Part shown: piece by piece, positions 10,760-34,375 of the stretch
Layout: the number at the start of each line of letters is the position of its first letter
Position numbering within the stretch: the stretch's first letter is position 1
NCBI GenBank assembly: GCA_964612675.1
Contig: CAZTDD010000004.1
Location: 38,386-102,385 of the forward strand
Reading direction: 5' to 3'
Length of the DNA: 64,000 bases
Origin: an uncultured bacterium
GTDB lineage: Bacteria > Hinthialibacterota > Hinthialibacteria > Hinthialibacterales > JAKPRU01
Made by a program: the position numbers and the translations under genes
Notes under the pieces: model-generated
Databases searched by the model: none
What the model was told of the DNA's origin: nothing
What the model saw: the letters and a program-made list of their open reading frames with translations, nothing else

Positions 10760-10807
10760 TTTTCTCGAGCGTTCATTGCGGGTACGCGTTTATTGGCGAC
10801 ATATATT

Positions 10808-10940: not shown

Positions 10941-10964
10941 ACGGTACATGCAAATACCATTGGC

Positions 10965-15713: not shown

Positions 15714-15785
15714 GGCGGCGTAGCCAAGTGGTAAGGCAGAGGACTGCAAATCCTTTATTCACCGGTTCGAATCCGGTCGCCGCCT
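15714..15785 (+). tRNA. tRNA-Cys (anticodon GCA)
   Basis: 72-nt cloverleaf: acceptor GGCGGCG/CGCCGCC, D-arm GCCAAGTGGTAAGGC, anticodon stem GAGGA/TCCTT with loop CTGCAAA (GCA), T-arm ACCGG-TTCGAAT-CCGGT, discriminator T. No encoded CCA. Confidence 0.85.
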
Positions 15786-18062: not shown

Positions 18063-19940
18063 CTACTCGTGGTGATTCTGAGCATCCCGGGCCGGATTAT
18101 GAAGCATTTCTCCAAATACTGTACACGCTTTGTGGATTTCGCTGAAATAATGTACATACCGCCGAAGCAATTCCACCTGCGATGCGGGATTGGGATGAAA
18201 TGTGAAATAGTCCGGCGCGCGAATCGTGACAAAAAGCCGTTCCAGAGCCAATTCGAGGATTTGGTAAAGCCGGAACCCCTCTTCGATCTGTTCGCGAACG
18301 GCCCTGAATTCCTGCAGCAGGCGGGAAAGCTGTTCGGGTTGCATGTCGCCGGAGAGTGAAGAAACCGCGCCGAGTTGCTTTTTGGCATGCGAGCCTACCC
18401 GTTCGACAACGGTTGCCAGATCTTCAAACAGTCCTTCGGGAATCGCCGGTGTAGGGATGGTCGAGATCCTTTCCACAACCTGCCAGGGATTGAAGGAAAC
18501 GGTCAAATACGTATCGATGGTCTCTCGAAGCGACAGGATCTGTGTTCCCTGTATCCATGCGCCTCCCTCGGTCGCATCTATACAGTGGACCTCCGTTTCC
18601 GCCAACAGATTCTCCAAGTAGCGAATAGATTCAAAAAACGCCGCACTGGTGGAGACAGTCGTTCCGTCAACGGAGGCTACGGAAATGGAGTCTACTTCCT
18701 CATGGAAATCACCGTCCGCCTCCGGGCGACGGTAGTCGATCTTCCCGGTACTGGTCCGCATCACCTCGGCCTGAAGGGCAGACCCGCTCGCGTGGCTTTT
18801 TCCTTGCGGTGGAAACGCCAGATCAAGTCCGACGAAGATGATGGGCGTACAGCCCATCACGCGGGCGAGATGAAACGCGGCCAGCGCAACATTCTGGCTG
18901 AACGGAAGAATGTCCTCTTGTTTCAGTTCGCGGCCCGGCAGTTGCTCGTGGAGGCCTCGACAGCGGTGTGGCAGGAAAATGGAAGGATTTCGGAACCTGT
19001 TCGCCAGAGCCGGAGTGATCTGAGGGTCGAAAACAAACACCGTCCGGCCCAGGTCGTCGATCCCTTCAAAATGACGGGCATTCAGCTCCGACGGATCTTT
19101 TGTAACGACAAATTGGGGTTCCACACCTTTTCGACGAAGCAATTGGAATGAAGTATCGCAAGCGAAAACAGCTGCCCGGCCCGTGATGTCCGGTATCAGG
19201 TCGATGTTCTTGTCGAGCGACGGTCCCGCGGCGACAATCAACGCGGGGTTTCCGGACAAGAGGTTTTTCACAGACGACGGCGGAACGGATCGGTACAGTT
19301 TGGGCACATTGCGGAGGATATGTTCCTGCGTGTGATAGCCCGTGGACTCCATGTGAGCCAACATGTTTTTGCCGGCTTCCGCCAGCCGTGAGATCTCGTG
19401 TTGGACCTCCTGGAGTTCATTCGGGCAGACCTGCGTTGCCGCGGGAAGAGCCTGAAAGTGGAAGCCGGTGGACAGAAACTCGCCCATTCGCCTGAATAGC
19501 GTCTGATAAAGCGCATGTGCGGGTTCAGCGCAAATAAGATCCACTGCTGCATTGTTGAACAACGGTCGCAGATCGACATGCTCCAGAGCAGCCCGGAAAA
19601 CATCGGCACGGGGTTCAAAAACACAGAGATAATCCCGGCGAGCTGTAGACAGGAGGGCCAAGGCCTGATAACCAAGCCCGAGTCCGAACAGTACTATGCG
19701 GCTCGACTCCCGGTTCTCAGGCGCGTTCGCCCAGCGTTCCGCTTCCTTGCGGGGGTCGTTCCTGCTGTGATAGAGCACAGTTCGACCGGAGGCGGCGGGG
19801 ACTTCCAGCGTGGGCGTCCCGGAGGGAGTCGTCTGAACGGTTACCGAGTCTGGAGAGGGCTCGTTCTCGAATCGAGCGGCGAGGGTGGGGTGGCGCTGAC
19901 GGAGCGCCTGTAGATTTGTCTGGAAGAACGACTTGACCAC
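18063..19940 (-). CDS. Motility-associated factor (Maf) family glycosyltransferase (DUF115 / MptE-like), paralog 1
   Basis: 625 aa. The N-terminus FFQTNLQALRQRHPTLAARF, the central PALIVAAGPSLDKNIDLI...AVFACDTSF Rossmann-like core and IIFVGLDLAFP are hallmarks of DUF115 Maf proteins, which in other bacteria transfer nonulosonic acids to flagellin. Paralogous to 32441-34375. Confidence 0.7.
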   Translation of the reverse strand: MVKSFFQTNLQALRQRHPTLAARFENEPSPDSVTVQTTPSGTPTLEVPAASGRTVLYHSRNDPRKEAERWANAPENRESSRIVLFGLGLGYQALALLSTARRDYLCVFEPRADVFRAALEHVDLRPLFNNAAVDLICAEPAHALYQTLFRRMGEFLSTGFHFQALPAATQVCPNELQEVQHEISRLAEAGKNMLAHMESTGYHTQEHILRNVPKLYRSVPPSSVKNLLSGNPALIVAAGPSLDKNIDLIPDITGRAAVFACDTSFQLLRRKGVEPQFVVTKDPSELNARHFEGIDDLGRTVFVFDPQITPALANRFRNPSIFLPHRCRGLHEQLPGRELKQEDILPFSQNVALAAFHLARVMGCTPIIFVGLDLAFPPQGKSHASGSALQAEVMRTSTGKIDYRRPEADGDFHEEVDSISVASVDGTTVSTSAAFFESIRYLENLLAETEVHCIDATEGGAWIQGTQILSLRETIDTYLTVSFNPWQVVERISTIPTPAIPEGLFEDLATVVERVGSHAKKQLGAVSSLSGDMQPEQLSRLLQEFRAVREQIEEGFRLYQILELALERLFVTIRAPDYFTFHPNPASQVELLRRYVHYFSEIHKACTVFGEMLHNPARDAQNHHE

Positions 19941-20054
19941 AGACGACCTCCACGTGAGACTCGATTCCGGGACGGTGTTTCTGCACCTTACCGCCCGAGA
20001 CGGTCGTCGTCGAGGCGTTCGTTCGCGCTTTCTAACAGCCTGTAGGAGATCGCT

Positions 20055-20226
20055 GATGTCGATCCCATGTCCACAATGCGGCAGAGAGTATGATGTTACT
20101 CTGTTTCAGTTTGGGAATAAGATCGAGTGTGTCTGTGGGGAAAAACTCCCGTTGTCTCACAAGGCGGAAGAAAGCGGGGGCAACGGAACGGCTACCGATT
20201 CAGACGATGAGGATATGCTGCCTTAG
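20055..20226 (+). CDS. Small zinc-ribbon protein (57 aa)
   Basis: CPQCG-x15-CVCG Cys4 motif with an acidic C-terminal tail. Start chosen at the ATG at 20055; the six-frame ORF from 19933 overlaps the end of the maf gene. Convergent with the downstream nuclease-like gene. Confidence 0.4.
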
Positions 20227-20281
20227 TTTCCTTCCAATATCTAGGTTTTCATTGTTTCCCACGGAAAGGCGGTCCGCTTCT

Positions 20282-20992
20282 TTACCAGTCGTAGCTCTGG
20301 ATCACAATGACTCCCTGTTGTTCTGCCTTCCGGAGAAACGCGTTGGTGGCGAAATGTGTAACGAGGACTTTTACAGTTTCCATATCTCCGTACTCCCGCT
20401 GCACCGCTTCCGCTTTTTCATTCAGTTCCTCGAAAACCTCCATACCTTTCATAGACGGCCGGATGTCCAACCGTAGCTTCACTTCACCGACAACCAACAC
20501 TTCTTGCCCGTTTCGAGTACCCCGCCCCAGGAGGTTCACTTCTCGTCCTCCAATTTCCGCTCGGATCAGTTTCTTCTTCAAATTGATTCCAAACTTCTCG
20601 CTGAGTACATTCGGCGCCATTCGATATGCCTCGTTCTCGAAACCATAGGAGACACTTCTTGACAGCCCGCCGACATCTTGACGGAGTCTCCGGAGGCCAA
20701 TGGTCAATTTCCGTATTTCCTCCTCTGTACGCGTCTGCGCTTCCGCCAGTTTCTCGACCTTGGCCTCTGTACGTACCTGGGCTTCTGCTAATTGTTCGAG
20801 TCTTGCTTCCGTCCGTTTCTGCGAGTGGGCCAAATCGGTAACAATGGATTTCAACTCATTGAAATCGCCTACGGTCACAAGGTTCCGATAAGAGGTATGC
20901 ACAACCTCCGCTAGAAGGGACGCTTGTTTATCGTCGAATCCTTCCAACAGCTTTGCTCGAATCGCATCTTCGTTGTACAGTCCCGGGTCCAT
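20282..20992 (-). CDS. Coiled-coil protein with C-terminal PD-(D/E)XK nuclease-like domain (DUF3782-like)
   Basis: 236 aa. The centre is a heptad-like repeat (RLEQLAEAQVRTEAKVEKLAEAQTRTEEEIRKL). The C-terminus has a D...EVK restriction-endonuclease-like core (REVNLLGRGTRNGQEVLVVGEVKLRLD). Family call from motif memory only. Confidence 0.5.
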   Translation of the reverse strand: MDPGLYNEDAIRAKLLEGFDDKQASLLAEVVHTSYRNLVTVGDFNELKSIVTDLAHSQKRTEARLEQLAEAQVRTEAKVEKLAEAQTRTEEEIRKLTIGLRRLRQDVGGLSRSVSYGFENEAYRMAPNVLSEKFGINLKKKLIRAEIGGREVNLLGRGTRNGQEVLVVGEVKLRLDIRPSMKGMEVFEELNEKAEAVQREYGDMETVKVLVTHFATNAFLRKAEQQGVIVIQSYDW

Positions 20993-21231
20993 GACACGAC
21001 CCCCTTCCCCGATCTTTCGTCCCTTGGCATGGAAGGGCTCGAAATTAGATCTTCACCGCATGTAGTCTAGTGTAACCCAAATCAACAAAGCGCACAAATC
21101 GGCAAAAAGACTGTGCAGGAAGGAGTTGGCGACTCCCCCATCGCCTCTTTTGTCGCCCAGGGGGCCTTTATGATACTATTCATTTGGTGCTTGCCTGAAA
21201 GCGAATTTCCACTGATCCGAGAACAATCTGA

Positions 21232-24200
21232 TTGAACCCTATGAAAACCCTCTATCTTATGTCGATTGCCCTACTATCGAGCAGCTTCTCCAGCCCCGTC
21301 GTCGATCTTTCCCAGCAACCCCGCGCATTGGATGAAGGGATCTACCAGGACATCCGTCTGCCGCATACCATCCCTCTTGGCGGCCTCGGCTGTGGTTCCG
21401 TGGAACTGGGCAGTGACGGTTGGTTTCAGCATCTCTCGATCAACAATAACTGGATCGAAGACCTGCCTCGGCCGGAAGGCTCTTTCTTTGCGATCTGGAT
21501 TCGAGATGGTGAGCACACCGCATCCAAAGTGCTGCGTCTCTCGGATGCCGATCTCCCGAGCGTCGATCATGTCCGCTATCAAGGTGTTTTCCCGTGTTCC
21601 ACCCTGACATTTACCGACATCGACCTACCGGTGGATGTTTTTTTGGACGCCTGGTCGCCTCTGGTTGCATGGAATCTGAAGGACTCGTCAATTCCTGGAG
21701 CAGTCTTTTCGCTGCGATGTACCAATCCCGCCGAACATCCCATCGAAGTCGCCTTGGCGTTCTCTTGGGAAAACCTCCTCGGGCTCGATACCCAACAAAG
21801 CGATTTCTCGCAACAAAGGATTGGCAACACACAGGAAATCGAAGGGTCGCGCTCAGTTCACGGCCTTGTGTTTCGCCAACTGGACAAAGACGAAGAAGAA
21901 AAACTGCCCGGAACCTACGCAATTGCTGTCGAGGAGGCGGACGAAGGGTCAATTTCATATTTGCCGTCATGGAATGTCGTTTCGCCTGATAGTTTTTGGG
22001 ATGAGTTCTCCGACGACGGATTTCTTTTCGACGAAGATCATCCGGGGCCGTGGCCTGTTGGGAACGAGGCCATCTCTCCGGCGGGTGCTGTTGCACAGCG
22101 ATTTACGCTGCCCGCGCGAAGCTCCCGGCGCGTTCATTTTGCGTTGGCATGGCATCAACCTACGCTTGTGCAAACGGAAGAGACCGAGCGACGACCTTTC
22201 TATGTCGAAGAATTCGACGATGCATGGGATACCGTGAAATATCTGCTGGATGATCGGGAGGACCTGTGGGGCGGTACCGAGAAATGGCGGGACGCTCTGA
22301 TGCGTTCTTCGCTGCCCCCCTGGCTGAGAGTTCGTTTGCTGAACGACCTGTGCCCTTTCTTCTCCCGAACGCTGTTGTTCGAGGGGCGCTACGCCATGAT
22401 TGAAGACTCGCGAAGCGGGGCGCTCCAATCCAACTTCAACGCACTGCTCGCCGACGCTTTTCTTTTAGGGTTCTTTCCCGAGCTGTGCGAAAGCAACCTG
22501 TATGTTGCCTCCACCGGCCAACTGCCGGATGGTGAGATTCCCTCTTACACGGGCACGTTTCCGGGGATTCTGACCGACGACACAACCGGCCTCGCCGCAA
22601 ATCAAAACCCATGGGGAGCCTGTGGGCTGATCCTACGCCTGCGGCTGTACGACTTACTAGCGGGCAGCGATCGCTTACGGGAAGAGCTGTACCCCGTTGC
22701 AAAGAACGCCGCGCTCTGGCTGGCTGACCGCGATCAAGACCGTGACGGGATTCCAGAGGGAGGCAATCCCCGGCTGGATCCCGGCAAGACCAAAAACTTC
22801 AGCGCAGTTTGTAGCGCGTGGCTGGCCGCCTTGCACGCCGTGAGCGATTTTGCATCCGCCACGAACGATCTCGAAACGCTGGCCCGGTATGAGAATCTGC
22901 GTGCCCGGGCACTCGAGAACGGGGTCTATGAACTCTGGAATGGTCGCTATCTGAAAGCATTTTTCGATCCGGAATCACCGGACGATCCAGCATCGATTAT
23001 GGTTTCTCCGGACGCGCTTGTTGGTGAATGGTATGCCGCAACAGTGGGATGGGAAGCAATCTGGCCGGAAGCGGTTATCGAGACAACGCTTCAGTCCCTT
23101 CTCCGAAAGAGGCCGTTTGCAGCAGAGGCCGAGGTACTCGATACCGGCCGGCTTTCGACATTGGCATCCGTGGCGGCTCAAAAAGGTAGAGCCGGGGATG
23201 GGTTCGAAATAATGAGCGAGCTGCATCGTCACGTGACCGAATCGGGCCAAGCGATGGCGATGCCCGCTCAAGTGGGGTCTGTCAGCGGAGGTGTTTCGAA
23301 CGACATCGGGGGACCTGTTTCCTGGGTCTTCCTGAACGCACTTACCGGAGCTTCATTCAACACAAAACTGGAGCGATTCACGTTGAGTCCACGAGTTCCA
23401 ACGGAATCGGACCGACTCGAAGTGCCTGTTTTCTTGCCGTCTTTCCGTGGTTGGCTTAGCTATCAAGCCCCCTCCTTTGAGTCTGCCCATCGAATTACGT
23501 TTCGGCTGAATGCACTTCGAGAAGGGCGCTCGCTCGAAATCAAGCAAATCGCGACACGGGTGCCACCTGCTTTCCGGGATCGGAATCCCGTGCTGTTCTT
23601 GGAGGGGTCGTCCGGCGGAGGCGGTGTTTCACGGCGGAGTCTCGGTCTACTTACACTTGTTCTGGATGATCCACTTCGCTTGCGCGAGGGGGATGATTTT
23701 ACCGTCGTGCTCGGGACAGAGGACACCGGCAGGATCGATGTCAACATCAAAGCGCATCAGGTCGCGGCACGGGGACCGGCGTGCAAGATTGATCGACTCC
23801 CGGATTCTCCTCTTGCATTCACTGTGATGAACCGTCTTCAGACCCCTCAGATGCTGAATCTCCGGTTTACCGGCCTGGATGGTCACTCGTATCGAATCGC
23901 GGTGGACGGTCGTGAAATATCGCCTCTGGAGACGGAAGGAACGCGTGTTACTCTCCCGCTTCCGGGCGGACCGTTCACGACGATGCAAGCTGCAAAGGCT
24001 GAACGTACTCGCCGTCGGCTGGTTCGAATCGTCCAGCTTCTTACAGAGTATCCGGCCGAACAGGAAGCCCTTCGTAAGGTCTGGGAGCTTCAGAAGACGA
24101 TTGAGCGGTTCTTCTTGGCCGACATCGGTGGGCGATTGGCGACTGTCGATGTGTATGAATCGGATACGGATCCCCCGGACCGCGAGCCAGCGGAAACTCT

Positions 24201-25137
24201 ATCCGAGCGTGAGGCTGAAAATCTCTGGGAGGATCTGAATGAGGAAACGGAGAAGTTCAGATCGAGCATCGCGGATGCGGTATCCGATCCGGCTGTGCGT
24301 GCGAGGATTCTCGGTCTGGCATATCCCGTGGATCTCATGTTGCACGTCGAAGGCGATCCATCGATGGAACCGGAATTCGATTTGACGGCTGTGTTGAGCA
24401 ACCCCGAACGTCTTCCTCTCAGCGGCCGATTCACATTGATCGTCCCCGAAGAGAGTTGGCAAGCCACCACACTCGATTCCACGGAGTTGCACTCGGGACC
24501 CTCTCCTTCCGAACGCGAAACGCGACGATTTCATGTGGAGATGCCGAGCCCACTTGCCGTTCAGCGTACGGAGATTATTGCGCGCTTCATCGGGGAGCTG
24601 GACAACCGGCTCTTTGTCTTAGAGACAATCATGCCGGTGGGGCACGGATTCCTTCGCGATTGGATGGTGCTGGGACCGTTTCCAAACGAAGGCGATCAGC
24701 AGCTGACGGAGGTTCATTATCCCGAGCACGCTGTAGACTTGGACGCGACATACGATGGTATCGGTGGAAGTGCGTCCTGGCGGGCGCATTATTCGGGAAC
24801 CGGCTATATCGATTTTCAGTCGATGTTCGATGTGCGCGGTCCGGCCCTGGCGTTTGCTCACGCCTTTGTCTACTCCCCGCACGATCGACCTGTCGTTTTC
24901 CATTTGGGAGCTACGCAAGGTGTACGGATCATACTGAATCAGCAAGACGTATTTACGCGGAACGACCATCAGCCCGCACAGCCCAGCCAATACCGAATCG
25001 CGACACGCTTCCGGAGCGGCTGGAACAATCTGCTTGTAAAGGTCTCACGGTTATATGGGGATTGGGGATTCTATCTGGAGATCACCGATCCTGCCGGAAG
25101 ACCGATCCCTGAGTTGAAAGTATCGTTGAGGCGGTAG
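21232..25137 (+). CDS. Glycoside hydrolase family 116-like protein (GBA2-type glucosylceramidase/beta-glucosidase fold) with long C-terminal extension
   Basis: 1301 aa with a signal peptide. The N-terminal HTIPLGGLGCGSVELGSDGWFQHLSINNNW...GSFFAIW block matches the GH116 N-terminal beta-sandwich. It is followed by an (alpha/alpha)6-like catalytic region (DUF608-like). The last ~450 aa are extra beta-rich domains. Confidence 0.6.
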   Translation: MNPMKTLYLMSIALLSSSFSSPVVDLSQQPRALDEGIYQDIRLPHTIPLGGLGCGSVELGSDGWFQHLSINNNWIEDLPRPEGSFFAIWIRDGEHTASKVLRLSDADLPSVDHVRYQGVFPCSTLTFTDIDLPVDVFLDAWSPLVAWNLKDSSIPGAVFSLRCTNPAEHPIEVALAFSWENLLGLDTQQSDFSQQRIGNTQEIEGSRSVHGLVFRQLDKDEEEKLPGTYAIAVEEADEGSISYLPSWNVVSPDSFWDEFSDDGFLFDEDHPGPWPVGNEAISPAGAVAQRFTLPARSSRRVHFALAWHQPTLVQTEETERRPFYVEEFDDAWDTVKYLLDDREDLWGGTEKWRDALMRSSLPPWLRVRLLNDLCPFFSRTLLFEGRYAMIEDSRSGALQSNFNALLADAFLLGFFPELCESNLYVASTGQLPDGEIPSYTGTFPGILTDDTTGLAANQNPWGACGLILRLRLYDLLAGSDRLREELYPVAKNAALWLADRDQDRDGIPEGGNPRLDPGKTKNFSAVCSAWLAALHAVSDFASATNDLETLARYENLRARALENGVYELWNGRYLKAFFDPESPDDPASIMVSPDALVGEWYAATVGWEAIWPEAVIETTLQSLLRKRPFAAEAEVLDTGRLSTLASVAAQKGRAGDGFEIMSELHRHVTESGQAMAMPAQVGSVSGGVSNDIGGPVSWVFLNALTGASFNTKLERFTLSPRVPTESDRLEVPVFLPSFRGWLSYQAPSFESAHRITFRLNALREGRSLEIKQIATRVPPAFRDRNPVLFLEGSSGGGGVSRRSLGLLTLVLDDPLRLREGDDFTVVLGTEDTGRIDVNIKAHQVAARGPACKIDRLPDSPLAFTVMNRLQTPQMLNLRFTGLDGHSYRIAVDGREISPLETEGTRVTLPLPGGPFTTMQAAKAERTRRRLVRIVQLLTEYPAEQEALRKVWELQKTIERFFLADIGGRLATVDVYESDTDPPDREPAETLSEREAENLWEDLNEETEKFRSSIADAVSDPAVRARILGLAYPVDLMLHVEGDPSMEPEFDLTAVLSNPERLPLSGRFTLIVPEESWQATTLDSTELHSGPSPSERETRRFHVEMPSPLAVQRTEIIARFIGELDNRLFVLETIMPVGHGFLRDWMVLGPFPNEGDQQLTEVHYPEHAVDLDATYDGIGGSASWRAHYSGTGYIDFQSMFDVRGPALAFAHAFVYSPHDRPVVFHLGATQGVRIILNQQDVFTRNDHQPAQPSQYRIATRFRSGWNNLLVKVSRLYGDWGFYLEITDPAGRPIPELKVSLRR

Positions 25138-25210
25138 CGGCCGCGATTACTCTTGGCCCTGCGTCTCACTGAGGTCGTTCCGCGCAGGAATTTCGGTCGC
25201 TGTATTATGT

Positions 25211-26251
25211 TCACAGCCCTTTCAACTCCGTAATGATTCGTTCGGCTGCGAGACTGTCTTCCTGTGGACGGCTCTCCAGAGCCTTTGCGTTTATTCCCAC
25301 AGGCGCCCAAACATGAGGATCGGTCGAACGAAACACGGCGAGTGTTGGACAACCGAGAGCGGCGGCCAAATGAGTGATCCCACTATCATTCCCCACGTAC
25401 ATAGACATCTTTCGGAGTACAGCCGCGATATCCATCAGGGGGCGATTGTGAATCGATCTTGGATTCAATTCGTTGACGGCTGCGCACAGATCGATTCCCA
25501 GTCGTTCCTCCTCTGCACCGGCCAATACGGCAACTCGGATGAAACGCTCCCGCGCAAGCCCGTGAAGAACATCGGCCCAGACGGGAATCGGTAAACGCTT
25601 TTCCGCTTTGCTTGCTCCTGGATGGATGGCGATCCAGGGGGATTGTCGCTCCGGCGCTCCCAGTAGATTCTCCAGGTCCTCAGGGAGTCTCGCCGAAATC
25701 TGTAGCGAAGGTACCTTGAGCGGTCTTGCGATTCCTAACTGGTTCAACGGTTCAAACAAATGGTCGATGACGTGCTGGTCTTCGGATGGACGTGGTGAAT
25801 GGACAACAACTTGACCAGGGCAGAGGTCAGTCAGGTTTCGAGTCAGCTGTCCGTCGCGGTCTTCTCCATACCAGAGAATAAGCGCTGCGGAAGCGAAGAG
25901 GTCGCGCACCTCTGCGGAGAGCGACGGACTCGGGCCGTACAGCGTATGAATCCCAGGCAGTTCAAAACTCATTGCGCGAGAGGCAAATGAAGGACCAACA
26001 AGCAGAGAGACACGTTCGTATTGTCCGAGTATAACGATTTCGCGATGTGGAAAGTGGTTTCGGAATGCGTGGATTACCGGTGCAAGGAGAATGGTATCTC
26101 CGATTGCTCCGTTTCGAATGACGAGAATATGCCCCCGTTCTTGCATAATCCGATATCTGCCATTGAAGGTAGCAGCGGCTCCCTGAACCGGGCAGAGAAG
26201 GCTGTGGTAGGAAGAGTAACTGGTCCAGGAGTTGAACTCCTGGACCAGCAT
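25211..26251 (-). CDS. Glycosyltransferase family 9 (LPS heptosyltransferase-like)
   Basis: ILVIRNGAIGDTILLAPVI matches the GT9 N-terminal ILIIRxxxxGDxxLxxP motif. The C-terminal GNDSGITHLAAALGCPTLAVF matches GxDSGxxHLAAAxGxPxVxLF. The true start is probably the Met at 26146 (MQERGHILVIR), because the palindromic repeat at 26220-26248 lies upstream of it. Confidence 0.75.
   Translation of the reverse strand: MLVQEFNSWTSYSSYHSLLCPVQGAAATFNGRYRIMQERGHILVIRNGAIGDTILLAPVIHAFRNHFPHREIVILGQYERVSLLVGPSFASRAMSFELPGIHTLYGPSPSLSAEVRDLFASAALILWYGEDRDGQLTRNLTDLCPGQVVVHSPRPSEDQHVIDHLFEPLNQLGIARPLKVPSLQISARLPEDLENLLGAPERQSPWIAIHPGASKAEKRLPIPVWADVLHGLARERFIRVAVLAGAEEERLGIDLCAAVNELNPRSIHNRPLMDIAAVLRKMSMYVGNDSGITHLAAALGCPTLAVFRSTDPHVWAPVGINAKALESRPQEDSLAAERIITELKGL
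26220..26248. repeat. Perfect 14-bp-arm palindrome ctggtccaggagtt-g-aactcctggaccag (GGAGTTGAACTCC core family)
   Basis: Read directly. It sits between the stop of the 669-aa gene and the probable GT9 start, so it is a terminator- or operator-like hairpin. Confidence 0.6.
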
Positions 26252-26294
26252 GTCCTGAAAGTATTCTCTATCTCAGATTCGTCCCCGGTATGCT

Positions 26295-28304
26295 TCAGCG
26301 CTCGGTAGGCGTTGTACTCTTGATTTCATCCGCCAATCTCTCCGCCTGTTCGGCCCTTTCCGGGATGTACTGCGCCATCTTCTGGGTGAGGATCAAAGCC
26401 AGTTCGCGCTGTCCGTTTTTGTTGAGTTCCCGAATTACTTCGGGCAGCCATTTGTGAATCTGGCTGATGCTGACGTCTCCCCGCATGTCGGGTGGGATCG
26501 ATACGCGAGCGGGCAGGTCACGAAAGACGGTCTGCTTCTGAGTGACGATCGCGTTTTCCTGTATTGAAGAGGCTTCCGCTTCTGCCTGACAAATCGAGAA
26601 GATGGCGATCAATTTGGCCAGCCGGCCCATGCCAAAGGCAACGTTCTGGGCCTGCTTATCGTGCGCGGCGCCCAAGGCCGCCATCTGCGCGGTACGCTCC
26701 AGCGTTTTGCTTGCACCGCGGGTCGCACGAGCCGTGTCGACAAACTGGATGTGATTTGCCTTTCCCTCCAAAACCGAATCAACTCTTTCATACGAGCTGT
26801 CGGTTTGAATGCCCTTTTGCCGTCCATCGTAAACGTCCAACATTTGATGCAGGGGGTTTTGGTGGGATGCGATCAACACCCCGCTTTCTACTATCGTGAG
26901 ACAGGGCTGGTACGGGAAGAACGGTATGGGGACCTGTATCGACGAGATTGTATGACCTTCATACTCGCTCGCCATGACTTGAATAGGCAACTCCGTGCTC
27001 TTGCGAATCGTATCGACGACTTTCGGCAGCCACGCTTTTGCCTTCTCTTGGTCGGTGGCTTCGATCCAGATCGCAAAATGATTCATCGGTACAACGGACT
27101 CCAGGTCGACGGGATACTTGACCGCGCCATAGCTCTGGCCCATCCATGAAAGTAGGTCTTCTTCGAAATCAAGGCCGGTATTTGCTTCGAACTCGGCGAA
27201 GCCGGCGCGAATTTCCTCCCGATTCGGGGCGAGCGAATCGATGAGTGTCCATGCAGCCTCCCAGATGTCCGGCACCGAGAAGACGTTACTGGCCCAGACA
27301 CTCTCGATTCCGCGCGGTGCGATTCGGAAAACGGGGAATCTGGCTGGCTCGTTGCGGAATAAATCTTCGAACAGCTCGGGGCGTTCCTCAGCCAACAGTG
27401 TTCGTCCTGTGGTGACTCTTGTTTGCCCGTCCCAAACCGACACACTCGCTCCGGCGCGGAATGTGCCGATCAGCGAAATCACCTGATCGGCGGCCCGATT
27501 CACGAGAACGCGCACTTCTTCGTCTTGGATGAAGGCGGTCAACTTCTGAATCTCGTGCAGAGTGGAAGCGAAATGGCCCCAGTTCGAGAAGACCAACTCG
27601 TCATAGGTGTCCGGAAGTTGCTCTTGAAGGGCCTGAAATTCGGGTTCATCGATCAGTCTGCCGCTCTCTAGCTCCGGGAGTTCCAATACCCGATCGAAGA
27701 TAGCGCTATTTGTGGAAATAAAGAGAAGATCTCCTTTTGCAACATACGAGAGCCCAAGTCCGGGAATTCCCACGCCCGCTTCTACCGAATCCACGACGCT
27801 TTCGTCGGCCCAACGGGTATCGCGGCTAACGGGGAGTCCGTAATTCAGAATCGTGTCGAACACCGATTTCAGCGTGGCCGTCGCTTTATCGAGCTCCTTC
27901 GGTTCACAAATATACAGAACAGAAGGTATTCGCGGTCCGATTCCTCCCGCCAATCCGAACACAGCAAACGCCGAGCGCTCGCTTTCAAAAGCACCGAACA
28001 TCGATGCGTTTTCCGGCAGGTTCATCTGTGCCTGAAGCGATTCCAGCTCTTCCCGGAGGATTCGCCATTCCACGATGTCGTTCATTGCCCGAAACCAGTC
28101 TTCGAGGCTTTGTTCGAAGTTGCGGAACGTGGGTTCCTCGGGCGCCTCGTTGATGCGTTCGCTGATCGTGCAGTAAAGCGCATCGCTGGGTATATAGTCC
28201 AACAGAGTTGGCGTCTGGGCCGCCACAGGCAAGGCGATTACCATAAGGAGCCCGATTTTTGCCGCTGCTTGGCGGAAGGTCGTGCTGTTCGATACTCGGT
28301 TCAT
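26295..28304 (-). CDS. Hypothetical secreted protein (669 aa)
   Basis: Signal peptide (IGLLMVIALPVAAQTP). No recognisable catalytic motifs. Sits next to an ECF sigma/anti-sigma pair. Confidence 0.5.
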   Translation of the reverse strand: MNRVSNSTTFRQAAAKIGLLMVIALPVAAQTPTLLDYIPSDALYCTISERINEAPEEPTFRNFEQSLEDWFRAMNDIVEWRILREELESLQAQMNLPENASMFGAFESERSAFAVFGLAGGIGPRIPSVLYICEPKELDKATATLKSVFDTILNYGLPVSRDTRWADESVVDSVEAGVGIPGLGLSYVAKGDLLFISTNSAIFDRVLELPELESGRLIDEPEFQALQEQLPDTYDELVFSNWGHFASTLHEIQKLTAFIQDEEVRVLVNRAADQVISLIGTFRAGASVSVWDGQTRVTTGRTLLAEERPELFEDLFRNEPARFPVFRIAPRGIESVWASNVFSVPDIWEAAWTLIDSLAPNREEIRAGFAEFEANTGLDFEEDLLSWMGQSYGAVKYPVDLESVVPMNHFAIWIEATDQEKAKAWLPKVVDTIRKSTELPIQVMASEYEGHTISSIQVPIPFFPYQPCLTIVESGVLIASHQNPLHQMLDVYDGRQKGIQTDSSYERVDSVLEGKANHIQFVDTARATRGASKTLERTAQMAALGAAHDKQAQNVAFGMGRLAKLIAIFSICQAEAEASSIQENAIVTQKQTVFRDLPARVSIPPDMRGDVSISQIHKWLPEVIRELNKNGQRELALILTQKMAQYIPERAEQAERLADEIKSTTPTER

Positions 28305-28343
28305 GATGGATTATTCCTTTCACGCAATAAGGCTCAGGATCAT

Positions 28344-29123
28344 TTAGCTCATGGCGCCTATCAGTTGAATCAACGTTGTACCCGCTGCGATTCCCGCCTG
28401 CGGCAACGCTTGCTTTGCCGCGGCATCGAGAGCACGAGATCCGTGGTTTTCGACGGCTTCCGACATTTCAGTGGCCGTGCTCTTCGCGCTGGTAAGGAGA
28501 CCTTCCGATTTCTTTGTCCATGCAGCCAGTTTATTCCCCACTGCCAATCGCGATTCCTGTTTCCAACTTTGTGCCTCTTCCGATGCCGACGAGTAAGCTT
28601 TTTTGGCTACGGTGGACAGAAAACCGCTCGCCGATCGATACACATTCAGTTGATCGGCCGAGGCCACCATTGTGGGATTGCTCTCAACCATTGGGCTGGG
28701 ATCGTCTTTCGGAACATCGGCGACTCTGTTTTCCGCTGGTGTCGATGACTCCGGGACTTCGGAAGGATTATCCACATATACAATGACGGAACCCAGCAGC
28801 AAGATCGTCATGCCCACATAGGCCAGAGTCCGCACCGAGAACAAATTGAGCCACCAACCGAACGGAACGTCGCGCGAAGCTCGCTTCTCGCGAGAGACTT
28901 TTCGCAGAACTCGGTCTCGAACTTGTTGAAACACCGCGTCATCGACATGGACCGCCTGCGGGTCCATTTCTGCGATTGTCTCTTCCAGCAAATTGAATTG
29001 AGCCAGCCGCTCGGCACATTGAGCGCATTCACTTACATGGTTTCGGACGAATTCCGATTCTTCAGGACCGACCAGATCGTCCAGGTACGCTGACATCAGT
29101 TTGTCGCTTATATGTCTGTTCAT
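28344..29123 (-). CDS. Zinc-finger (zf-HC2) anti-sigma factor with one TM helix
   Basis: N-terminal HVSECAQCAERL (H-x3-C-x2-C anti-sigma motif), a central TM helix (LAYVGMTILLLGSVIVYV) and a periplasmic C-terminal domain. It lies immediately downstream of the ECF sigma gene, 9 bp apart on the same strand. Confidence 0.65.
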   Translation of the reverse strand: MNRHISDKLMSAYLDDLVGPEESEFVRNHVSECAQCAERLAQFNLLEETIAEMDPQAVHVDDAVFQQVRDRVLRKVSREKRASRDVPFGWWLNLFSVRTLAYVGMTILLLGSVIVYVDNPSEVPESSTPAENRVADVPKDDPSPMVESNPTMVASADQLNVYRSASGFLSTVAKKAYSSASEEAQSWKQESRLAVGNKLAAWTKKSEGLLTSAKSTATEMSEAVENHGSRALDAAAKQALPQAGIAAGTTLIQLIGAMS

Positions 29124-29131
29124 GATTCACC

Positions 29132-29869
29132 TCACCTCGCCTGGATCAAGTCCGCAAGGAGTGGTTCCAGATCTCTCATGAGTTTCTTTCGGGCGGCGAA
29201 CAGCGTTGTTCCCACTGTTCGTTCTTTGCATTCGAGGACTTCGGCGATCTCTTTCATGGATAACTCGCGCAAACACCGGAGCGACATGGCCATTCGCTGT
29301 CGTTTCGGTAATTGGTTCATGGCGGCCACGACCTTGTCTTCCAGTTGTTTGTGGAGGATTCGCCGATGAGGATCGTCCGGCGTTTCGTCCGCCAAATTCG
29401 TCTCCGGTTCGAGTCCCGTGTCCTCTTGTTTGCTTTCCAGGGAAACCGTTCGTCCCGGTTTCGCTTTCCTCAGATGATCGATTGCCAGGTTTGAAGCAGT
29501 CCGGAAAAGCCAAGGTTGAAGCGAAACATCCTCCCGCAGCTTATCTATGCTTCGGTGGAGCCTGATAAAGGTCTCCTGGAGGACATCCTGTGTATCTTCA
29601 TCATTTCGGACAATCTTCCAGACCAGCCGATACAAGCGGCGCTGGTACCGCGACATGAGGCAGTTGAACCCTGCCATATCGCCGTCCTTCCAACGCTTAA
29701 GATCCGCAACATCTTGGGATACTGTTGGTTCGGACCCCAATATGTTGTGGTCTGCCAACGCGACGCCCGCTTGTCTCACGGTCAAACCTGCTTTACTGAT
29801 TAGGTTTTGCCCCACTGTGGGGCTCTCAACTGCTTCTACAATGGTATACGTAAGATAGGAATCGAACAT
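29132..29869 (-). CDS. ECF (sigma-70 family, group 4) RNA polymerase sigma factor
   Basis: Region 2 reads YRLVWKIVRNDEDTQDVLQETFIRLHRSI. Region 4 helix-turn-helix reads LSMKEIAEVLECKERTVGTTLFAARKKL. The true start may lie downstream of the first ATG. Confidence 0.8.
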   Translation of the reverse strand: MFDSYLTYTIVEAVESPTVGQNLISKAGLTVRQAGVALADHNILGSEPTVSQDVADLKRWKDGDMAGFNCLMSRYQRRLYRLVWKIVRNDEDTQDVLQETFIRLHRSIDKLREDVSLQPWLFRTASNLAIDHLRKAKPGRTVSLESKQEDTGLEPETNLADETPDDPHRRILHKQLEDKVVAAMNQLPKRQRMAMSLRCLRELSMKEIAEVLECKERTVGTTLFAARKKLMRDLEPLLADLIQAR

Positions 29870-29997
29870 TTACTCTTGTTTCTCGATTGTTTTTTGCGCT
29901 GGTATCCGACCTCTCCGGGATGGGCGGCCTTTGAGTCATCCACGGCTGACTCTGACATAGAGTCATGATAGCACGCGTTGTAAAATCATAGACCGTC

Positions 29998-30683
29998 ATG
30001 ATCAAACACGCTAACGGAGACCAGACAATGAACCGATCACTCTGGCTCATCTTGAGTTCTATATTCCTCCTCGCCCAGTTCTCCTGGGCGGCTGAGTCCG
30101 TCGACCTTGCTTTAGTGAACGGAAAGATTATTACCCTTAACAAGGATAATCCTCAAGCGGAAGCACTCGCAGTCCGCCACAACAAGATCGTTGCGGTTGG
30201 TACGAATGCGGAGATTCGGTCCACCATCGGTCCTTCCACACAGGTGATCGACCTCGAAGGGAGTACGGCTGTCCCTGGGTACCGGACCGTCTTGGAGAAG
30301 AGCGATCGCGGGAAGGAGCCTATGTGTGGCGGAAACTGATCGACTCGGGAGCGGTGGTCTGTAACGGGACCGATTCCCCCGTGGAGCCGCTCAGCCCGAT
30401 TGAGTGTTTCTTCGCCGCTATCACCCGCCGATTGCCGGATGGTTCTGCTTTCTATCCCCAACAGTGCATGACCCGTGAAGAGGCACTCCGATCCTATACG
30501 ATCGATGCGGCGTATGCTGCATTCGAGGAAGATATCAAAGGGTCTCTCACACCGGGCAAACTGGCGGACGTTACGGTTCTGTCCAAAGATATTCTGACGG
30601 TCTCTGAGGATGAAATACTCAGCACGGAGATACTCTACACGATCGTTGGCGGGGATATTCGCTACAAAAAGCGGCTACCTTGA
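29998..30683 (+). pseudogene. Amidohydrolase-3 family (metal-dependent hydrolase) gene with large internal deletion and frameshift
   Basis: ORF 29998-30339 encodes a signal peptide plus the amidohydrolase N-terminus (VDLALVNGKIITLNKDNPQAEALAVRHNKIVAVGTNAEI...VIDLEGSTAVPGY). It then diverges and terminates. ORF 30324-30683, in another frame, encodes the family C-terminus (LIDSGAVVCNGTDSPVEP...EEALRSYTIDAAYAAFEEDIKGSLTPGKLADVTVLSKDIL). About 300 aa of the catalytic barrel are missing. Confidence 0.6.
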
Positions 30684-30690
30684 CCGAGTA

Positions 30691-30909
30691 TCAACGTTTG
30701 CCGCCGAATAAGTTGAAGATCAACGTCAAGATAATCGAAAGAATAATGCATGTAGCAATGGGAAAATAGAAAGAAAAGTTCTCTTTTTCGATGCGGATGT
30801 CCCCGGGGAGTCTCCCGATCCACGGAATCTTGCCCACAAAGGTCAGCACAAGGCCGAGTACGACAAGAATCCCGCCGAACAGCAAGAGCATTCGTCCCAT
30901 TGATTCCAT
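30691..30909 (-). CDS. DUF2905 family small membrane protein
   Basis: LLLFGGILVVLGLVLTFVGKIPWIGRLPGDIRIEKENFSFYFPIATCIILSIILTLIF matches the DUF2905 pattern (..GRLPGDIRIExxNFSFYFPI..). Start chosen at an internal Met (30909 or 30900); the longer ORF runs to 30987. Confidence 0.6.
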   Translation of the reverse strand: MESMGRMLLLFGGILVVLGLVLTFVGKIPWIGRLPGDIRIEKENFSFYFPIATCIILSIILTLIFNLFGGKR

Positions 30910-31027
30910 CACAATAAATCTCACTTCCACAGGCTGGAAGCCCATACCACCCGGTTCTGAAATGACTGGACAAACACAGCTTAGCAAGTGTTATCCTTGT
31001 GCGGTACGCTGACTGCGAGGAGACGTC

Positions 31028-32458
31028 ATGAACCTTTTGATCAATCCGAATCTGATGAAGCCGCCGGTGACGCCGGTGGCTCTCGATTATTTATCACAGG
31101 CTCTAGAGGAGGCAGGCATGCCGTCCAGAGTTTTGGATTTGGCTTTCGAATCCGAACCGTTGGAGGCAATCCGAGCGCAAATTACCGGCGAGGAGGATCT
31201 CGTTGGTGTCTCTGTGCGAAATATCGACGATTGTTATTACACCAGCCAGGATTTCTGCCTGGAGCGAACACGTGAGATTGTGAGGGAGATCAAAGCGCGT
31301 ACGAGCGCGCCGGTTTTTGTCGGTGGGATTGGCTACTCCATGTTCCCGAGAGAAACCCTCCATTTCCTGGAGGCGGATGCGGGTGTACCCGGTGAGGGAG
31401 AGGAAGTCCTCTGTGGGGCAGCACATCGTATCCGCGAAAAGCGAGATTGGCGGGAGACACCGGACCTTCTATTGAACGGACAAGGAGCAGATCAACCGCT
31501 CCGATTCAGTCGGGTGTCCAATTTGGCAGAGATGGATCTATCCGCTCGACGGGCTATCGACAACGCCCGCTACCTCCGCGAGGGAGCCAATGTAGGGTTC
31601 GAGACGAAACGCGGCTGCGACGGAACCTGTATTTTCTGTCCTGAACCGTACGCCAAAGGTACGCATATCCGAGTTCGCAACCCGGAAAATGTCGCACAGG
31701 AACTCGAAAATCTCTTGGCGCAGGGGGTAGACACGTTTCATACCTGCGACAGTGAGTTCAACCTGCCTCCCGGTCATGCCCTCAGTGTTTGTGAGGCGAT
31801 CATCGCGAGAGGTTTGGAGGACCGCATCGGTTGGTATGCCTATGCGACTCCGCACCCATTTCCCGAGGAACTGGCGGAGGCGATGCGCCGGGCGGGCTGT
31901 GTGGGAATCGACTTTGGGGTAGACCATGCGGATGACGAGATGCTGAGACGGCTCGGACGGAAGCATAGTGTGGAGCATTTGAGAGAAACCGCCGCATTGT
32001 GCCGGAAGCATGATATTCCCATTATGTACGATCTTCTTATCGGAGGACCGGGGGAAACACGCGACTCGATTCGGCGCACGATTGAGACACTGAAGACCAT
32101 TGCGCCGGAGCGGGTCGGCATCTCATTCGGCGCACGGGTTTACCCAAACACACCGTTGGGCCGAATGGTGGAACGCGAAGGATTTACGCCGGAAAATCCG
32201 AATTTGCGCGGTCAGATCCGGGACAATGAGTCGTTTTTACATCCTGTTTATTACGTTTCAGCGAAGATGGGAAAAGACGTCGGCGACTTCCTTCAGGATT
32301 TAATCGCAGGAGACGAACGCTTCCTGTTCGGCGGTACCGAGCAGAGCGAGCAGAACTACAACTACAATGACAATTCTGTGCTATCGAATGCGATTCGGGA
32401 GGGTGAGCGAGGAGCCTACTGGGATATTCTTCGGCGGCTGTCAAGCAGATCCACCTGA
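31028..32458 (+). CDS. B12-binding domain radical SAM protein (class B radical SAM)
   Basis: N-terminal cobalamin-binding Rossmann-like region (LDLAFESEPL...LVGVSV). Radical SAM cluster motif RGCDGTCIFCPEP (Cx3Cx2C). Downstream TIM-barrel-like region with GxIxxGxPGET. Its 3' end overlaps the 3' end of the convergent maf gene by 18 bp. Confidence 0.8.
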   Translation: MNLLINPNLMKPPVTPVALDYLSQALEEAGMPSRVLDLAFESEPLEAIRAQITGEEDLVGVSVRNIDDCYYTSQDFCLERTREIVREIKARTSAPVFVGGIGYSMFPRETLHFLEADAGVPGEGEEVLCGAAHRIREKRDWRETPDLLLNGQGADQPLRFSRVSNLAEMDLSARRAIDNARYLREGANVGFETKRGCDGTCIFCPEPYAKGTHIRVRNPENVAQELENLLAQGVDTFHTCDSEFNLPPGHALSVCEAIIARGLEDRIGWYAYATPHPFPEELAEAMRRAGCVGIDFGVDHADDEMLRRLGRKHSVEHLRETAALCRKHDIPIMYDLLIGGPGETRDSIRRTIETLKTIAPERVGISFGARVYPNTPLGRMVEREGFTPENPNLRGQIRDNESFLHPVYYVSAKMGKDVGDFLQDLIAGDERFLFGGTEQSEQNYNYNDNSVLSNAIREGERGAYWDILRRLSSRST

Positions 32459-34375
32459 CAATTCCGCACACACCTGATCCAGCAGGTTGATGAAGTGCTC
32501 CAGCATCATGTTCATTTCGCTTAGGATAAACTGGTACTTGTTGTACATGCAGCGAAGAAACGTGGCGGGAGACTCGTCCGGAAGCGGATCGGACCGTTGT
32601 CGCCGGTAATAGAGATACGTGACAGACGCGTCCAGGAAAGTATTGAATAGCGGATCCGCCAACATGGATTGCCACAGATCTTCGAGCCGATTCCACTCGT
32701 TCTGGGATTGCTGAGGAGTCAGCGTCCCGGACGATGCCAGTTCCGGCCATGATGCGATGTGTTGGAGAGCCTGTTCGGCGATTTGTTTCGAGTCCGCCAA
32801 TGTCGCCCGGCCTTTCTGTAACTCAGAAATAAGAGGCTCAACGGGCCGCTGAGGGGGCGGGCTCCGGAACCGTTCCAGGAACGGTGTCACATCTTCCGCA
32901 GGACCTAGCTGCAACATCGCCTCTTTGAAGGTCATGATCTCAGTACCTTGTTTCAGGGCACCCCCTTCCGTTGCATCGATTACACGAGCGCCGCTTTTCC
33001 GGATGTTCTGTTCGAGATCCCGGATGTACTGACGAAACGAGACGGATGTCGGGACTTCACCCCCGAAGTAGCCCGGCACAAACACAACTTGTCCGGTCTC
33101 ACTGTCCGCCTTACCTTCTTTCCCCCCGACAGTCATTGAACGGTCGGCTCCAACCGCCGACGTTGTACGGGAAACCGCTGCATCCGCGGCGTGACTGGTG
33201 CCCCCCTGCGGCGAAAAAGCGAGGTCCATTCCGATCAAGATAATCGGATCGCAGCCCAGATGTACCGCGATATTGAAGGCGATTTGACCGACATTCATAC
33301 CGCGGGGTACATGCCCGACCTCCCCCAGAATATTCTCAAGGACCTGAGACAAATGTTTGAGCAACGCGCCCTGTTCATCGACGAGCGGAAACAGATAGGG
33401 ATGACTGGGATACTTCCGGGTGATTCGCCAATGGGATTCCGGGTGAAATGCGAGAATGGTGTCATCAAGATCCTGAATTCGTTCAAAGTGGCTGAAATTC
33501 AGTTCCGTCGGATCGGCCGCGACGACGATATGAGGGCGGATACCGCGTTTCGATAACGTGTTCTGACTGGTGTCGGCACTGATAATGAGTCCCCGGTTGT
33601 TCAACTCTTTCAGCTCATCGATGTTCCTATCGAGCGACGGTCCGGCGGCGACGACGACCGCAGGCGTCCCCTGGGCGGCGTCGCGATACTCGGCGGGCAT
33701 TCGGCCGCGCCAGAAAGCGTGCAGGTTCATGATGATGTTCTGCTGGTTCGTCTGCCGTTGCCCGAGGACAGTCTTTGTGTTGACCCCGTCGAAGGTGACC
33801 ACGTCGACGATCTCTTTCGCAACATCGACATAATATTGGCGATTGATTTGTTGGGTTGGGGTATGATGAAGAATCTTGAAATTGTGGACCATGAAGTTCG
33901 TTCGGAGCGGTTTGAGGAGTTCGGGAAACACCTCGGAAGGTTCTCCGACGAAACAGAAACAAGGCTCCGCCCCAATCAGGCCACGGAGATCGCGCATGGA
34001 GAGTGCCAACCGAAAGAGGTGCGGATCGAACTCAACCAGGGCGATGCTCCGTGCGTGCGTTCCGAACCGGTCGAGGTAGCTGACGATGTGATAGCCCAAT
34101 CCCACGCCGAGAAAAACCAGGTTGATCGCTGAATTCACAGGCTCGTTTTCCGCCCACCGATCGGCTTCGCGAACCGGATCGTACACACTGCAGAGTGCCC
34201 GGGCCGAAGCGTCTCCGGGGGGATGATATCGAACCGCAGGCAGGCCGGATTTCGCCTCGATCAATTCCAAATATGGAGGCAGTCCCGGACCGAGGCCGGC
34301 AATTCGATTCGCCAGCTCGGGGTCGCGTTGGCTCAGGACTTCCAGGTTGGATTGCAGGATAGACGGCATGGGCAT
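32441..34375 (-). CDS. Motility-associated factor (Maf) family glycosyltransferase (DUF115), paralog 2
   Basis: 644 aa. LQSNLEVLSQRDPELANRI, PAVVVAAGPSLDRNIDELKELNNRGLIISADTS and ILIGMDLAFSP match the DUF115 architecture. Last gene of the minus-strand flagellar run. Confidence 0.7.
   Translation of the reverse strand: MPMPSILQSNLEVLSQRDPELANRIAGLGPGLPPYLELIEAKSGLPAVRYHPPGDASARALCSVYDPVREADRWAENEPVNSAINLVFLGVGLGYHIVSYLDRFGTHARSIALVEFDPHLFRLALSMRDLRGLIGAEPCFCFVGEPSEVFPELLKPLRTNFMVHNFKILHHTPTQQINRQYYVDVAKEIVDVVTFDGVNTKTVLGQRQTNQQNIIMNLHAFWRGRMPAEYRDAAQGTPAVVVAAGPSLDRNIDELKELNNRGLIISADTSQNTLSKRGIRPHIVVAADPTELNFSHFERIQDLDDTILAFHPESHWRITRKYPSHPYLFPLVDEQGALLKHLSQVLENILGEVGHVPRGMNVGQIAFNIAVHLGCDPIILIGMDLAFSPQGGTSHAADAAVSRTTSAVGADRSMTVGGKEGKADSETGQVVFVPGYFGGEVPTSVSFRQYIRDLEQNIRKSGARVIDATEGGALKQGTEIMTFKEAMLQLGPAEDVTPFLERFRSPPPQRPVEPLISELQKGRATLADSKQIAEQALQHIASWPELASSGTLTPQQSQNEWNRLEDLWQSMLADPLFNTFLDASVTYLYYRRQRSDPLPDESPATFLRCMYNKYQFILSEMNMMLEHFINLLDQVCAELSGGSA

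Follow-up and report, generated by a model that had tools for sequence, protein, structure and literature searches.

Two distant Maf glycosyltransferases, one of them fixed at the end of a hook and stator operon, and an adjacent, probably unrelated TsrM-like radical SAM gene in an uncultured bacterium

Maf proteins are glycosyltransferases which, in published work, act in the cytoplasm on serine and threonine residues of flagellin. TsrM is a tryptophan 2-C-methyltransferase belonging to the cobalamin-binding radical S-adenosylmethionine (SAM) superfamily. Relatives of both are encoded close together in the stretch of DNA described here, namely 64,000 nucleotides of contig CAZTDD010000004.1 from an uncultured bacterium of the Hinthialibacterota (GCA_964612675.1), which is referred to as the window. 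It encodes two Maf paralogs, Maf1 and Maf2, and a cobalamin (B12) radical SAM enzyme whose gene overlaps the end of maf2. A first-pass annotation had combined all three into one candidate system for making a methylated flagellar glycan. The analysis reported here favours, with a probability of roughly 0.72, a different reading, in which the region contains two independent things: a Maf glycosylation component, and an unrelated, stand-alone TsrM-like gene.

The closest known Mafs are those of Magnetospirillum magneticum AMB-1 (structure 5MU5) and Shewanella oneidensis (Maf-1, or SoMaf-1). Both consist of an N-terminal Maf domain, a central DUF115/MptE-like domain of GT-A type and a C-terminal helical domain. 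They are encoded among flagellar genes and occur as paralogs, which may target different flagellin serines, as in S. oneidensis. A catalytic aspartate is required (D247 in SoMaf-1 and D261 in SoMaf-2), and the acceptor is recognised either by the C-terminal helical domain or by a separate protein, GlfM. The PseD and PseE proteins of Campylobacter and Helicobacter (NCBIfam NF050051) have the DUF115 core in common with these.

The two window proteins have the same three-domain layout. The genes maf1 (18063-19940, minus strand) and maf2 (32441-34375, minus strand) encode 625 and 644 amino acids (aa) respectively. Maf1 matches the Pfam families PF01973 (MptE-like/DUF115; 122 bits, E 2.9e-35, cutoff 34.6) and PF20157 (Maf_flag10_N; 48.9 bits, E 7.6e-13, cutoff 23.5). 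Maf2 matches PF01973 with 129 bits (E 1.9e-37, same cutoff of 34.6), and PF20157 with 25.0 bits (E 1.6e-5), which is barely above the cutoff of 23.5. An alignment of the two proteins covers about 500 aa with 33% identity (E 1e-61), and they are judged from their sequences to be true paralogs. Profile hidden Markov models (HMMs) built here find exactly two Mafs in the window, together with one member of the radical SAM family discussed below.

When only the sequences are compared, both proteins match 5mu5 weakly (E 1e-3 for Maf2 and 2.3e-9 for Maf1), with an identity of only about 15%. The structure of Maf2 was predicted with AlphaFold2 from a 39-sequence alignment (pLDDT 93.8, pTM 0.89), and 5mu5 is by far the best Foldseek match of the model in the PDB (E 6e-20), with TM-scores of 0.58/0.59 across the whole chain. 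The GPS, Asp and EGG positions are invariant in both paralogs and in 37 homologs. Within these 39 Mafs the candidates for the catalytic aspartate are, by conservation, D384, which is invariant, and D288, which is nearly so.

The helical C-terminal domain is about 150 aa long in each of Maf1 and Maf2 and forms a helical bundle, whereas SoMaf-1 has a long C-terminus of tetratricopeptide repeats (TPR). No small four-helix-bundle (GlfM-like) open reading frame (ORF) is evident beside either maf gene on inspection of the ORFs, which is not a rigorous search. The NCBIfam PseD model gives only 68-70 bits for the two proteins (E ~1e-19) against a cutoff of 670, and there is no pse gene cluster adjacent to them. 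It is concluded that Maf1 and Maf2 are genuine but distant members of the Maf family, and are not orthologs of the Campylobacter proteins.

The surroundings of maf2 are those of a flagellar operon, although different from those of 5MU5 and SoMaf-1, in that maf2 ends an operon of hook and stator genes and is not beside flagellin or nonulosonic-acid genes. The operon lies on the minus strand and consists of fliK (41207-43768; Pfam Flg_hook), flgD (40473-41165; FlgD), flgE (37224-40307; Flg_bb_rod, FlgE_D2 and Flg_bbr_C), flbD (36838-37047; an ORF whose ortholog in a related genome assembly belongs to PF06289), motA (36077-36835; MotA_ExbB), motB (35227-36048; MotB_plug and OmpA), a second motB (34389-35207; MotB_plug and OmpA) and maf2. 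The gaps between genes from flbD to maf2 are 2-28 nucleotides, that between the second motB and maf2 being 13. The first-pass annotation had given this gene order correctly, including the position of maf2 at the end of the run, but had counted one motB gene where there are two.

The same order, fliK-flgD-flgE-flbD-motA-motB-motB-maf, is common to eight loci of relatives, in which Maf2 is 40-69% identical to the window protein. (Labels of the form L001 denote loci or contigs from relatives, both genomic and metagenomic.) The eight loci are L087 (a genome assembly), L088, L090 and the metagenomic contigs L097, L098, L099, L102 and L104. In a further locus (L103) the maf gene follows directly after flgE, beyond a hairpin. 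Because the operon order recurs in eight loci of relatives, we regard the flagellar link of Maf2 as real, its gene being conserved within a flagellar operon. The genes beyond maf2 vary. They are a GntR regulator with pilin-like and FG-GAP genes in L099, a GT4 glycosyltransferase in L090, L103, L104 and L106, and an operon with an HpnJ-like radical SAM gene in L088. Given that these genes differ among relatives, the transcription unit is taken to end at maf2.

What is unusual about Maf2 is its fixed place at the end of the operon, with hook and stator genes and beside a giant FlgE. In nine loci its orthologs are always found next to flgE or to the flgE-flbD-motAB block, and never next to flagellin. 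The FlgE protein has 1027 aa in the window and 1007-1036 aa across the clade, with a central insertion of about 750 aa that is acidic and contains 18% Ser+Thr.

Some further features of the operon may be recorded here. A terminator-like hairpin (37168-37134, minus strand; a 15-bp stem followed by a T-run) is located 3' of flgE and before flbD, and is a possible attenuator, separating expression of the hook gene from that of the stator genes and maf. The tandem motB pair stands behind a single motA and is kept in L087, L088, L097-L099 and L104. The two MotB proteins are about 38% identical overall, but almost identical in their first 45 or so residues, comprising the transmembrane helix, the plug and the conserved Asp; they may be stator variants with different periplasmic anchoring domains. 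In several relatives of both Maf paralogs at 35-45% identity, a GT4 glycosyltransferase gene of about 394 codons is found directly 3' of maf (L090, L096, L103, L104 and L106). The window has no such partner.

Maf1 is encoded separately, at a non-flagellar locus about 12 kb from the flagellar block. The genes in between are unrelated: they encode GH116, GT9 and DUF3352 proteins and an extracytoplasmic function (ECF) sigma/anti-sigma pair, together with an amidohydrolase pseudogene. The first-pass annotation had described maf1 and the radical SAM gene as flanking the flagellar block. They are in fact both on the same side of it. The sole conserved neighbour of maf1 is the Mut7-C RNase gene that follows it, which is kept beside a 57% identical Maf1 ortholog.

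This ortholog is located 3-10 kb from a pseudaminic-acid-type cluster (L093 1-7090, and L094), which encodes NeuB, a PseG-like/PseH-like GNAT fusion, a 433-aa protein, a class I methyltransferase, a DUF4910/DUF2172 protein and a sulfotransferase. Of the available hints that a pseudaminic-acid-type sugar is made in the lineage, this cluster is the best. Its gene content also suggests that the sugar may be methylated and/or sulfated in that relative. None of its genes is in the window, where tblastn with NeuB, PseG/H and the other nonulosonic-acid genes of L093 gave no match. Pfam scans of all the larger ORFs likewise found no flagellin or nonulosonic-acid genes in the window, in agreement with the first-pass annotation. 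Contiguous islands of flagellin, maf and sugar genes are met only with more distant Mafs (24-33% identity), which sit in canonical flagellin and NeuB islands; the example analysed in detail is L149.

Given that both proteins are members of the Maf family, that maf2 has its place in a flagellar operon, and that NeuB, PseG and PseH genes lie near a Maf1 ortholog, a role for the Mafs in flagellar nonulosonic-acid glycosylation is a reasonable prediction. The part of the earlier proposal which concerns Maf-based flagellar glycosylation is therefore retained, as regards both the family and its flagellar link. The part which makes the radical SAM gene a component of the system is not, as discussed below.

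The radical SAM gene (31028-32458, plus strand) is monocistronic and encodes 476 aa. Its product contains a B12-binding domain (PF02310; 44.7 bits, E 1.4e-11) and a Radical_SAM domain (PF04055; 90.7 bits, E 1.6e-25), and the three cysteines of its CxxxCxxC motif (C197, C201 and C204) are invariant among homologs. With both domains and the CxxxCxxC core present, the assignment as a class-B (cobalamin) radical SAM enzyme stands. The closest solved relative is TsrM (PDB 6wte; E 1.7e-101 with a profile and 1.8e-64 with the single sequence). The window protein scores 261 bits with the NCBIfam model for TsrM (TIGR04428), and six other members of its family score 278-297, against a cutoff of 500. Another model, TIGR04072 ('lipid biosynthesis B12-binding/radical SAM protein', of ladderane-cluster type), shows full-length similarity, with 234.7 bits for the window protein and 205-274 for family members; all the members tested are below its cutoff of 360, and the 80 loci described next show no neighbouring genes for fatty-acid synthesis. 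Scores with the models for BchE (63.5 bits, cutoff 481), HpnJ (74.9, 578), HpnR (40.3, 650) and BzaD (124, 450) are also below cutoff.

The family is large. More than 2600 homologs were found at E <1e-20, and the top 120 are 48-82% identical to the window protein and of near-constant length. A genomic scan with one genome per species found the family at 584 places, of which the best 80 (46-61% identity; L007-L086) were analysed with 10 kb on each side. These 80 loci come from at least 14 named phyla. The most frequent are Desulfobacterota (19) and Chloroflexota (16, including 11 Dehalococcoidia), followed by Hydrogenedentota and Planctomycetota (6 each), Armatimonadota (5), and Nitrospirota and Bacillota (4 each); the remainder include Verrucomicrobiota, Aerophobetes, Poribacteria, Latescibacterota, Actinomycetota, Omnitrophota and unclassified bacteria. 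By its sequence scores, the family is placed as a very large and unnamed one, between TsrM and TIGR04072 and below the cutoffs of both.

The comparison with TsrM is informative about the likely chemistry. In TsrM, Arg69 is located beneath the cobalt, and Glu273 of the sequence Asp271-Ser272-Glu273 acts as ligand to the unique iron in place of SAM (PMC9204698). Roles have also been described for Asp335 and Arg412, and these features underlie a non-radical transfer of a methyl cation (PMC9204698). All of these residues have counterparts in the window enzyme, in which R64 aligns with R69 of TsrM, D241 with D271, S242 with S272, E243 with E273, Y272 with Y308, D299 with D335 and R370 with R412. 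All except the serine are invariant in the 120 homologs (120/120), S242 being present in 97 of them. R64 is within the motif G-V-S-V-R, which corresponds to the Gly-x-Thr-x-Arg69 of TsrM, so that both enzymes have a Gly-x-Ser/Thr-x-Arg motif. Tyr308 is a further hallmark of TsrM, which PMC9204698 does not mention. The two proteins also share the N-terminal cobalamin domain, the CxxxCxxC motif and a C-terminal motif, NYxxN...GYxGAFW, which reads NYNYNDN...GYRGAFW in the window family and includes the invariant Y444 and W465.

There are also clear differences. TsrM has 575 aa against 476 in the window enzyme, from which most of the TsrM C-terminal region is absent, and the window gene is outside any thiopeptide cluster. 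Many anaerobic phyla have a gene of this family, in single copy and standing alone. No description of TsrM-like homologs in primary metabolism was found in the literature searched. Judging from the conserved residues, the family most likely methylates a nucleophilic centre by a polar route that depends on methylcobalamin, as part of some general cellular process. It probably does not methylate unactivated carbons by a radical route, which was the basis of the first-pass proposal of a methylated flagellar glycan. Because the TsrM-type residues predict polar methyl transfer, there is no chemical rationale for a methylated flagellar glycan, and a system of this kind is not supported.

We looked for indications of function in the gene neighbourhoods of the family. 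Clustering of the neighbours in the 80 loci found no partner that is conserved across phyla. The recurrent neighbours are either promiscuous families, such as histidine kinases and ABC ATPases, or restricted to single clades, such as an alpha/beta hydrolase in Dehalococcoidia and PanC in Desulfobacterota, and an assignment of function from conserved neighbours was therefore abandoned. Within the close clade (at least 59% identity) the only conserved neighbour is a divergent gene for a small membrane protein of DUF2905 (PF11146, E 4.9e-26; 30691-30945, minus strand, in the window). It adjoins the radical SAM orthologs in L092, L091, L003-L007 and L008, and the next genes in relatives are queA and one for an NlpC/P60 protein.

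In place of the queA side, the window has the amidohydrolase pseudogene (29998-30683, plus strand). This consists of an N-terminal piece of 113 aa, which has a signal peptide and ends where the metal-binding motif should begin, and a frameshifted C-terminal piece of 119 aa, which covers Amidohydro_3 positions 359-472 of 472; the central 240 or so residues are deleted. The split is identical in two independent Logan assemblies (L001 and L002), and it is therefore not an assembly error. The pseudogene marks a local rearrangement next to the DUF2905/radical SAM pair.

The question of most interest is whether the radical SAM gene is linked to Maf or to flagella. Across the 80 loci, no Maf was found within 10 kb of the radical SAM gene (0/80 by tblastn; the best E value with a Maf profile HMM was 0.0063, which is non-significant), and none of the loci has a flagellar gene cluster, the only related matches being OmpA-type domains in two of them. 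In the window the radical SAM gene runs towards maf2, and the ends of the two genes share 18 bp (32441-32458), as had been described previously; because they are convergent they are not co-transcribed. This junction was found in three places only. Besides the window, it is present in L092, with 82% identity for the radical SAM protein, 81% for Maf2 and the same 18-bp overlap, and in L100, with 61% for Maf2, 67% for a fragment of the radical SAM protein and a gap of about 100 bp.

The junction is missing in relatives that are just as close. It is absent from L097, L098, L099, L101 and L102. The genome assembly GCA_043820745.1 has its orthologs of maf2 (L087) and of the radical SAM gene (L091) on separate contigs, the latter followed by a hypothetical gene and then an MmeI-type methylase gene. 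Metagenome 3300009693 contains a contig with a 64% identical Maf2 and another with a 61% identical radical SAM protein, each with other neighbours. A search of 812 kb of metagenomic DNA centred on Mafs yielded a single true member of the family, that in L100, beside three to five radical SAM-like genes of other kinds. By a rough reckoning, the density of radical SAM genes near Mafs is about the background for anaerobes. We conclude that the adjacency of the radical SAM gene to maf2 is most likely incidental. The first-pass annotation had named, as evidence that would count against its proposal, a phylogenetic grouping with enzymes of unrelated function and a lack of co-occurrence with maf. This is essentially what was found: the nearest characterised relative, TsrM, has an unrelated function, and a nearby Maf is confined to the window, L092 and L100.

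Two loci of relatives contain other B12 radical SAM genes near Mafs. In L088 an operon (11955-15421) encoding a GcpE_C-domain protein, an HpnJ-like B12 radical SAM protein and a TPR protein is convergent with a 41% identical Maf2 ortholog. This radical SAM gene was considered as an ortholog of the window gene and rejected, since it is only 26% identical and HpnJ-like; that another radical SAM gene, not an ortholog, also abuts a gene of Maf2 type is probably a coincidence. L149 (4008-16904; Ga0079294_100018) is an island of co-directional genes for flagellin, FliD, FliS, FlgN, Maf, a 191-aa ORF and a B12 radical SAM protein (10392-11783; BchE-like and 24% identical to the window enzyme), followed by a cytidine monophosphate (CMP)-sugar cytidylyltransferase, NeuB, a NeuC-like epimerase, a dehydratase and an aminotransferase. 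It follows that enzymes of the B12 radical SAM type can form part of flagellin nonulosonic-acid islands. In the literature searched, such a gene inside an island of this kind is not mentioned, and among the top search results there was no link of radical SAM enzymes to flagellin glycosylation.

The reading that we favour can be set out as follows. The gene maf2 would be co-transcribed with flbD-motA-motB-motB, downstream of fliK-flgD-flgE, and maf1 expressed from its separate locus. Both proteins would be cytoplasmic, three-domain enzymes, for which the most likely donor sugar is a nonulosonic acid activated with CMP, probably one of pseudaminic-acid type. The predicted acceptors are Ser/Thr residues of flagellin before its export, and possibly of other exported axial proteins. 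The C-terminal helical domain of each Maf would be its acceptor-binding module, so that a separate GlfM-like adaptor is not expected. The sugar biosynthesis and flagellin genes are expected elsewhere in the genome. The tail-to-tail position of the radical SAM gene and maf2 would be a lineage-specific product of rearrangement.

Several observations weigh against this reading. The retention of the junction in L092 and L100 means that a functional tie in that sub-lineage is possible. In L149 the co-directional genes from maf to the CMP-sugar synthetase include one for a B12 radical SAM enzyme. Flagellar genes are missing next to maf1, both in the window and in the loci of its orthologs, and the PseD scores of both Mafs are far below the cutoff. 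Finally, the 64 kb of the genome that were analysed show no gene for flagellin, a CMP-sugar synthetase or a nonulosonic-acid synthase.

The first two of these observations, with the close contact of the two genes in the window and the L088 arrangement, are what favours the alternative in which the B12 radical SAM enzyme tailors the flagellar glycan, for example by C-methylating the nonulosonic acid transferred by Maf2, which would make the two genes parts of one modification system. We consider this very improbable, given that the two genes are convergent, that the family is found in many phyla without a Maf in any of the 80 loci, and that in relatives with 61-69% identical proteins the genes are apart. 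The enzymes of L088 and L149, at 24-26% identity, are HpnJ/BchE-like rather than TsrM-like. An invariant Glu on the cluster and an Arg under the cobalt predict a non-radical chemistry that is unsuited to unactivated sugar carbons, and the surroundings of Mafs show no enrichment in B12 radical SAM genes (about 4-6 radical SAM-like matches in the 812 kb). It is also possible, though again rather improbable, that one or both of the Mafs, and Maf1 especially, are not flagellar nonulosonic-acid transferases, and modify another protein or transfer another sugar. The non-flagellar surroundings of Maf1 and the low PseD scores fit this alternative, and the pairing of Maf orthologs with GT4 genes hints at glycans beyond a single nonulosonic acid. 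Against it stand the full Maf architecture, including the N-terminal Maf domain, and the position of the Maf1 ortholog 3-10 kb from NeuB and PseG/PseH-like genes. Moreover, several Maf paralogs for different flagellin serines are normal, as in S. oneidensis.

A further alternative concerns the acceptor of Maf2. The Maf2 clade could be a putative dedicated hook glycosyltransferase, acting on the giant FlgE (or on other rod and hook proteins), with Maf1 serving flagellin. It would be encoded together with flgE and expressed along with genes of the middle class. This would agree with the constant position of Maf2 orthologs beside flgE in nine loci, including the maf gene straight after flgE in L103, and with the 18% Ser+Thr in the central 750 residues of FlgE. 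It would also agree with the three O-linked pseudaminic acid sites in FlgE of Helicobacter pylori (bioRxiv 10.1101/2025.07.13.664564). However, the experimentally characterised Mafs found in the literature searched all act on flagellin, operon position alone does not define the acceptor, and early expression fits equally well with a Maf that is needed before flagellin is synthesised. We therefore regard a hook-specific Maf2 as unlikely.

The Mafs are thus new distant members of a known family, and form an ordinary Maf system in an unusual operon position. The analysis should stop the spread of a plausible but unsupported annotation as 'flagellar glycan methylase'. A Maf subfamily that is fixed beside a giant FlgE makes hook glycosylation testable outside Helicobacter; if the hook reading were true, no Maf before Maf2 would have been assigned an acceptor other than flagellin, and the operon position of maf2 would be explained. 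The very large, conserved and unnamed TsrM-like cobalamin family across anaerobic phyla, with its predicted non-radical methyl transfer, is a second modest lead. Neither of these leads alone changes current understanding.

The limits of maf1, maf2 and the radical SAM gene in the ORF list are exactly those of the first-pass annotation. Rfam and tRNA scans found no riboswitch or other RNA element near the Maf and radical SAM genes, and the sole RNA gene detected in the window is a tRNA-Cys (GCA; 15714-15785, plus strand), about 2.3 kb from maf1. The window has no shift in composition that would suggest an island. Upstream of maf1 is an ORF of 236 aa (20282-20992, minus strand), the N-terminal half of which resembles a coiled coil with repeated 'LAEAQ.RTE' units; it was considered as flagella-related and set aside, as it looks like a coiled coil and has no Pfam or NCBIfam match. 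An ORF of 451 aa (10965-12320, minus strand) has a marginal match to a Mu-type phage portal protein (25.7 bits, cutoff 23.9) and may be a prophage remnant. A radical SAM gene resembling that of spore photoproduct lyase (about 63581-64000, plus strand) starts close to the window's right edge and runs off it; it is seen in L177 (4571-5761) and is unrelated to the B12 radical SAM gene.

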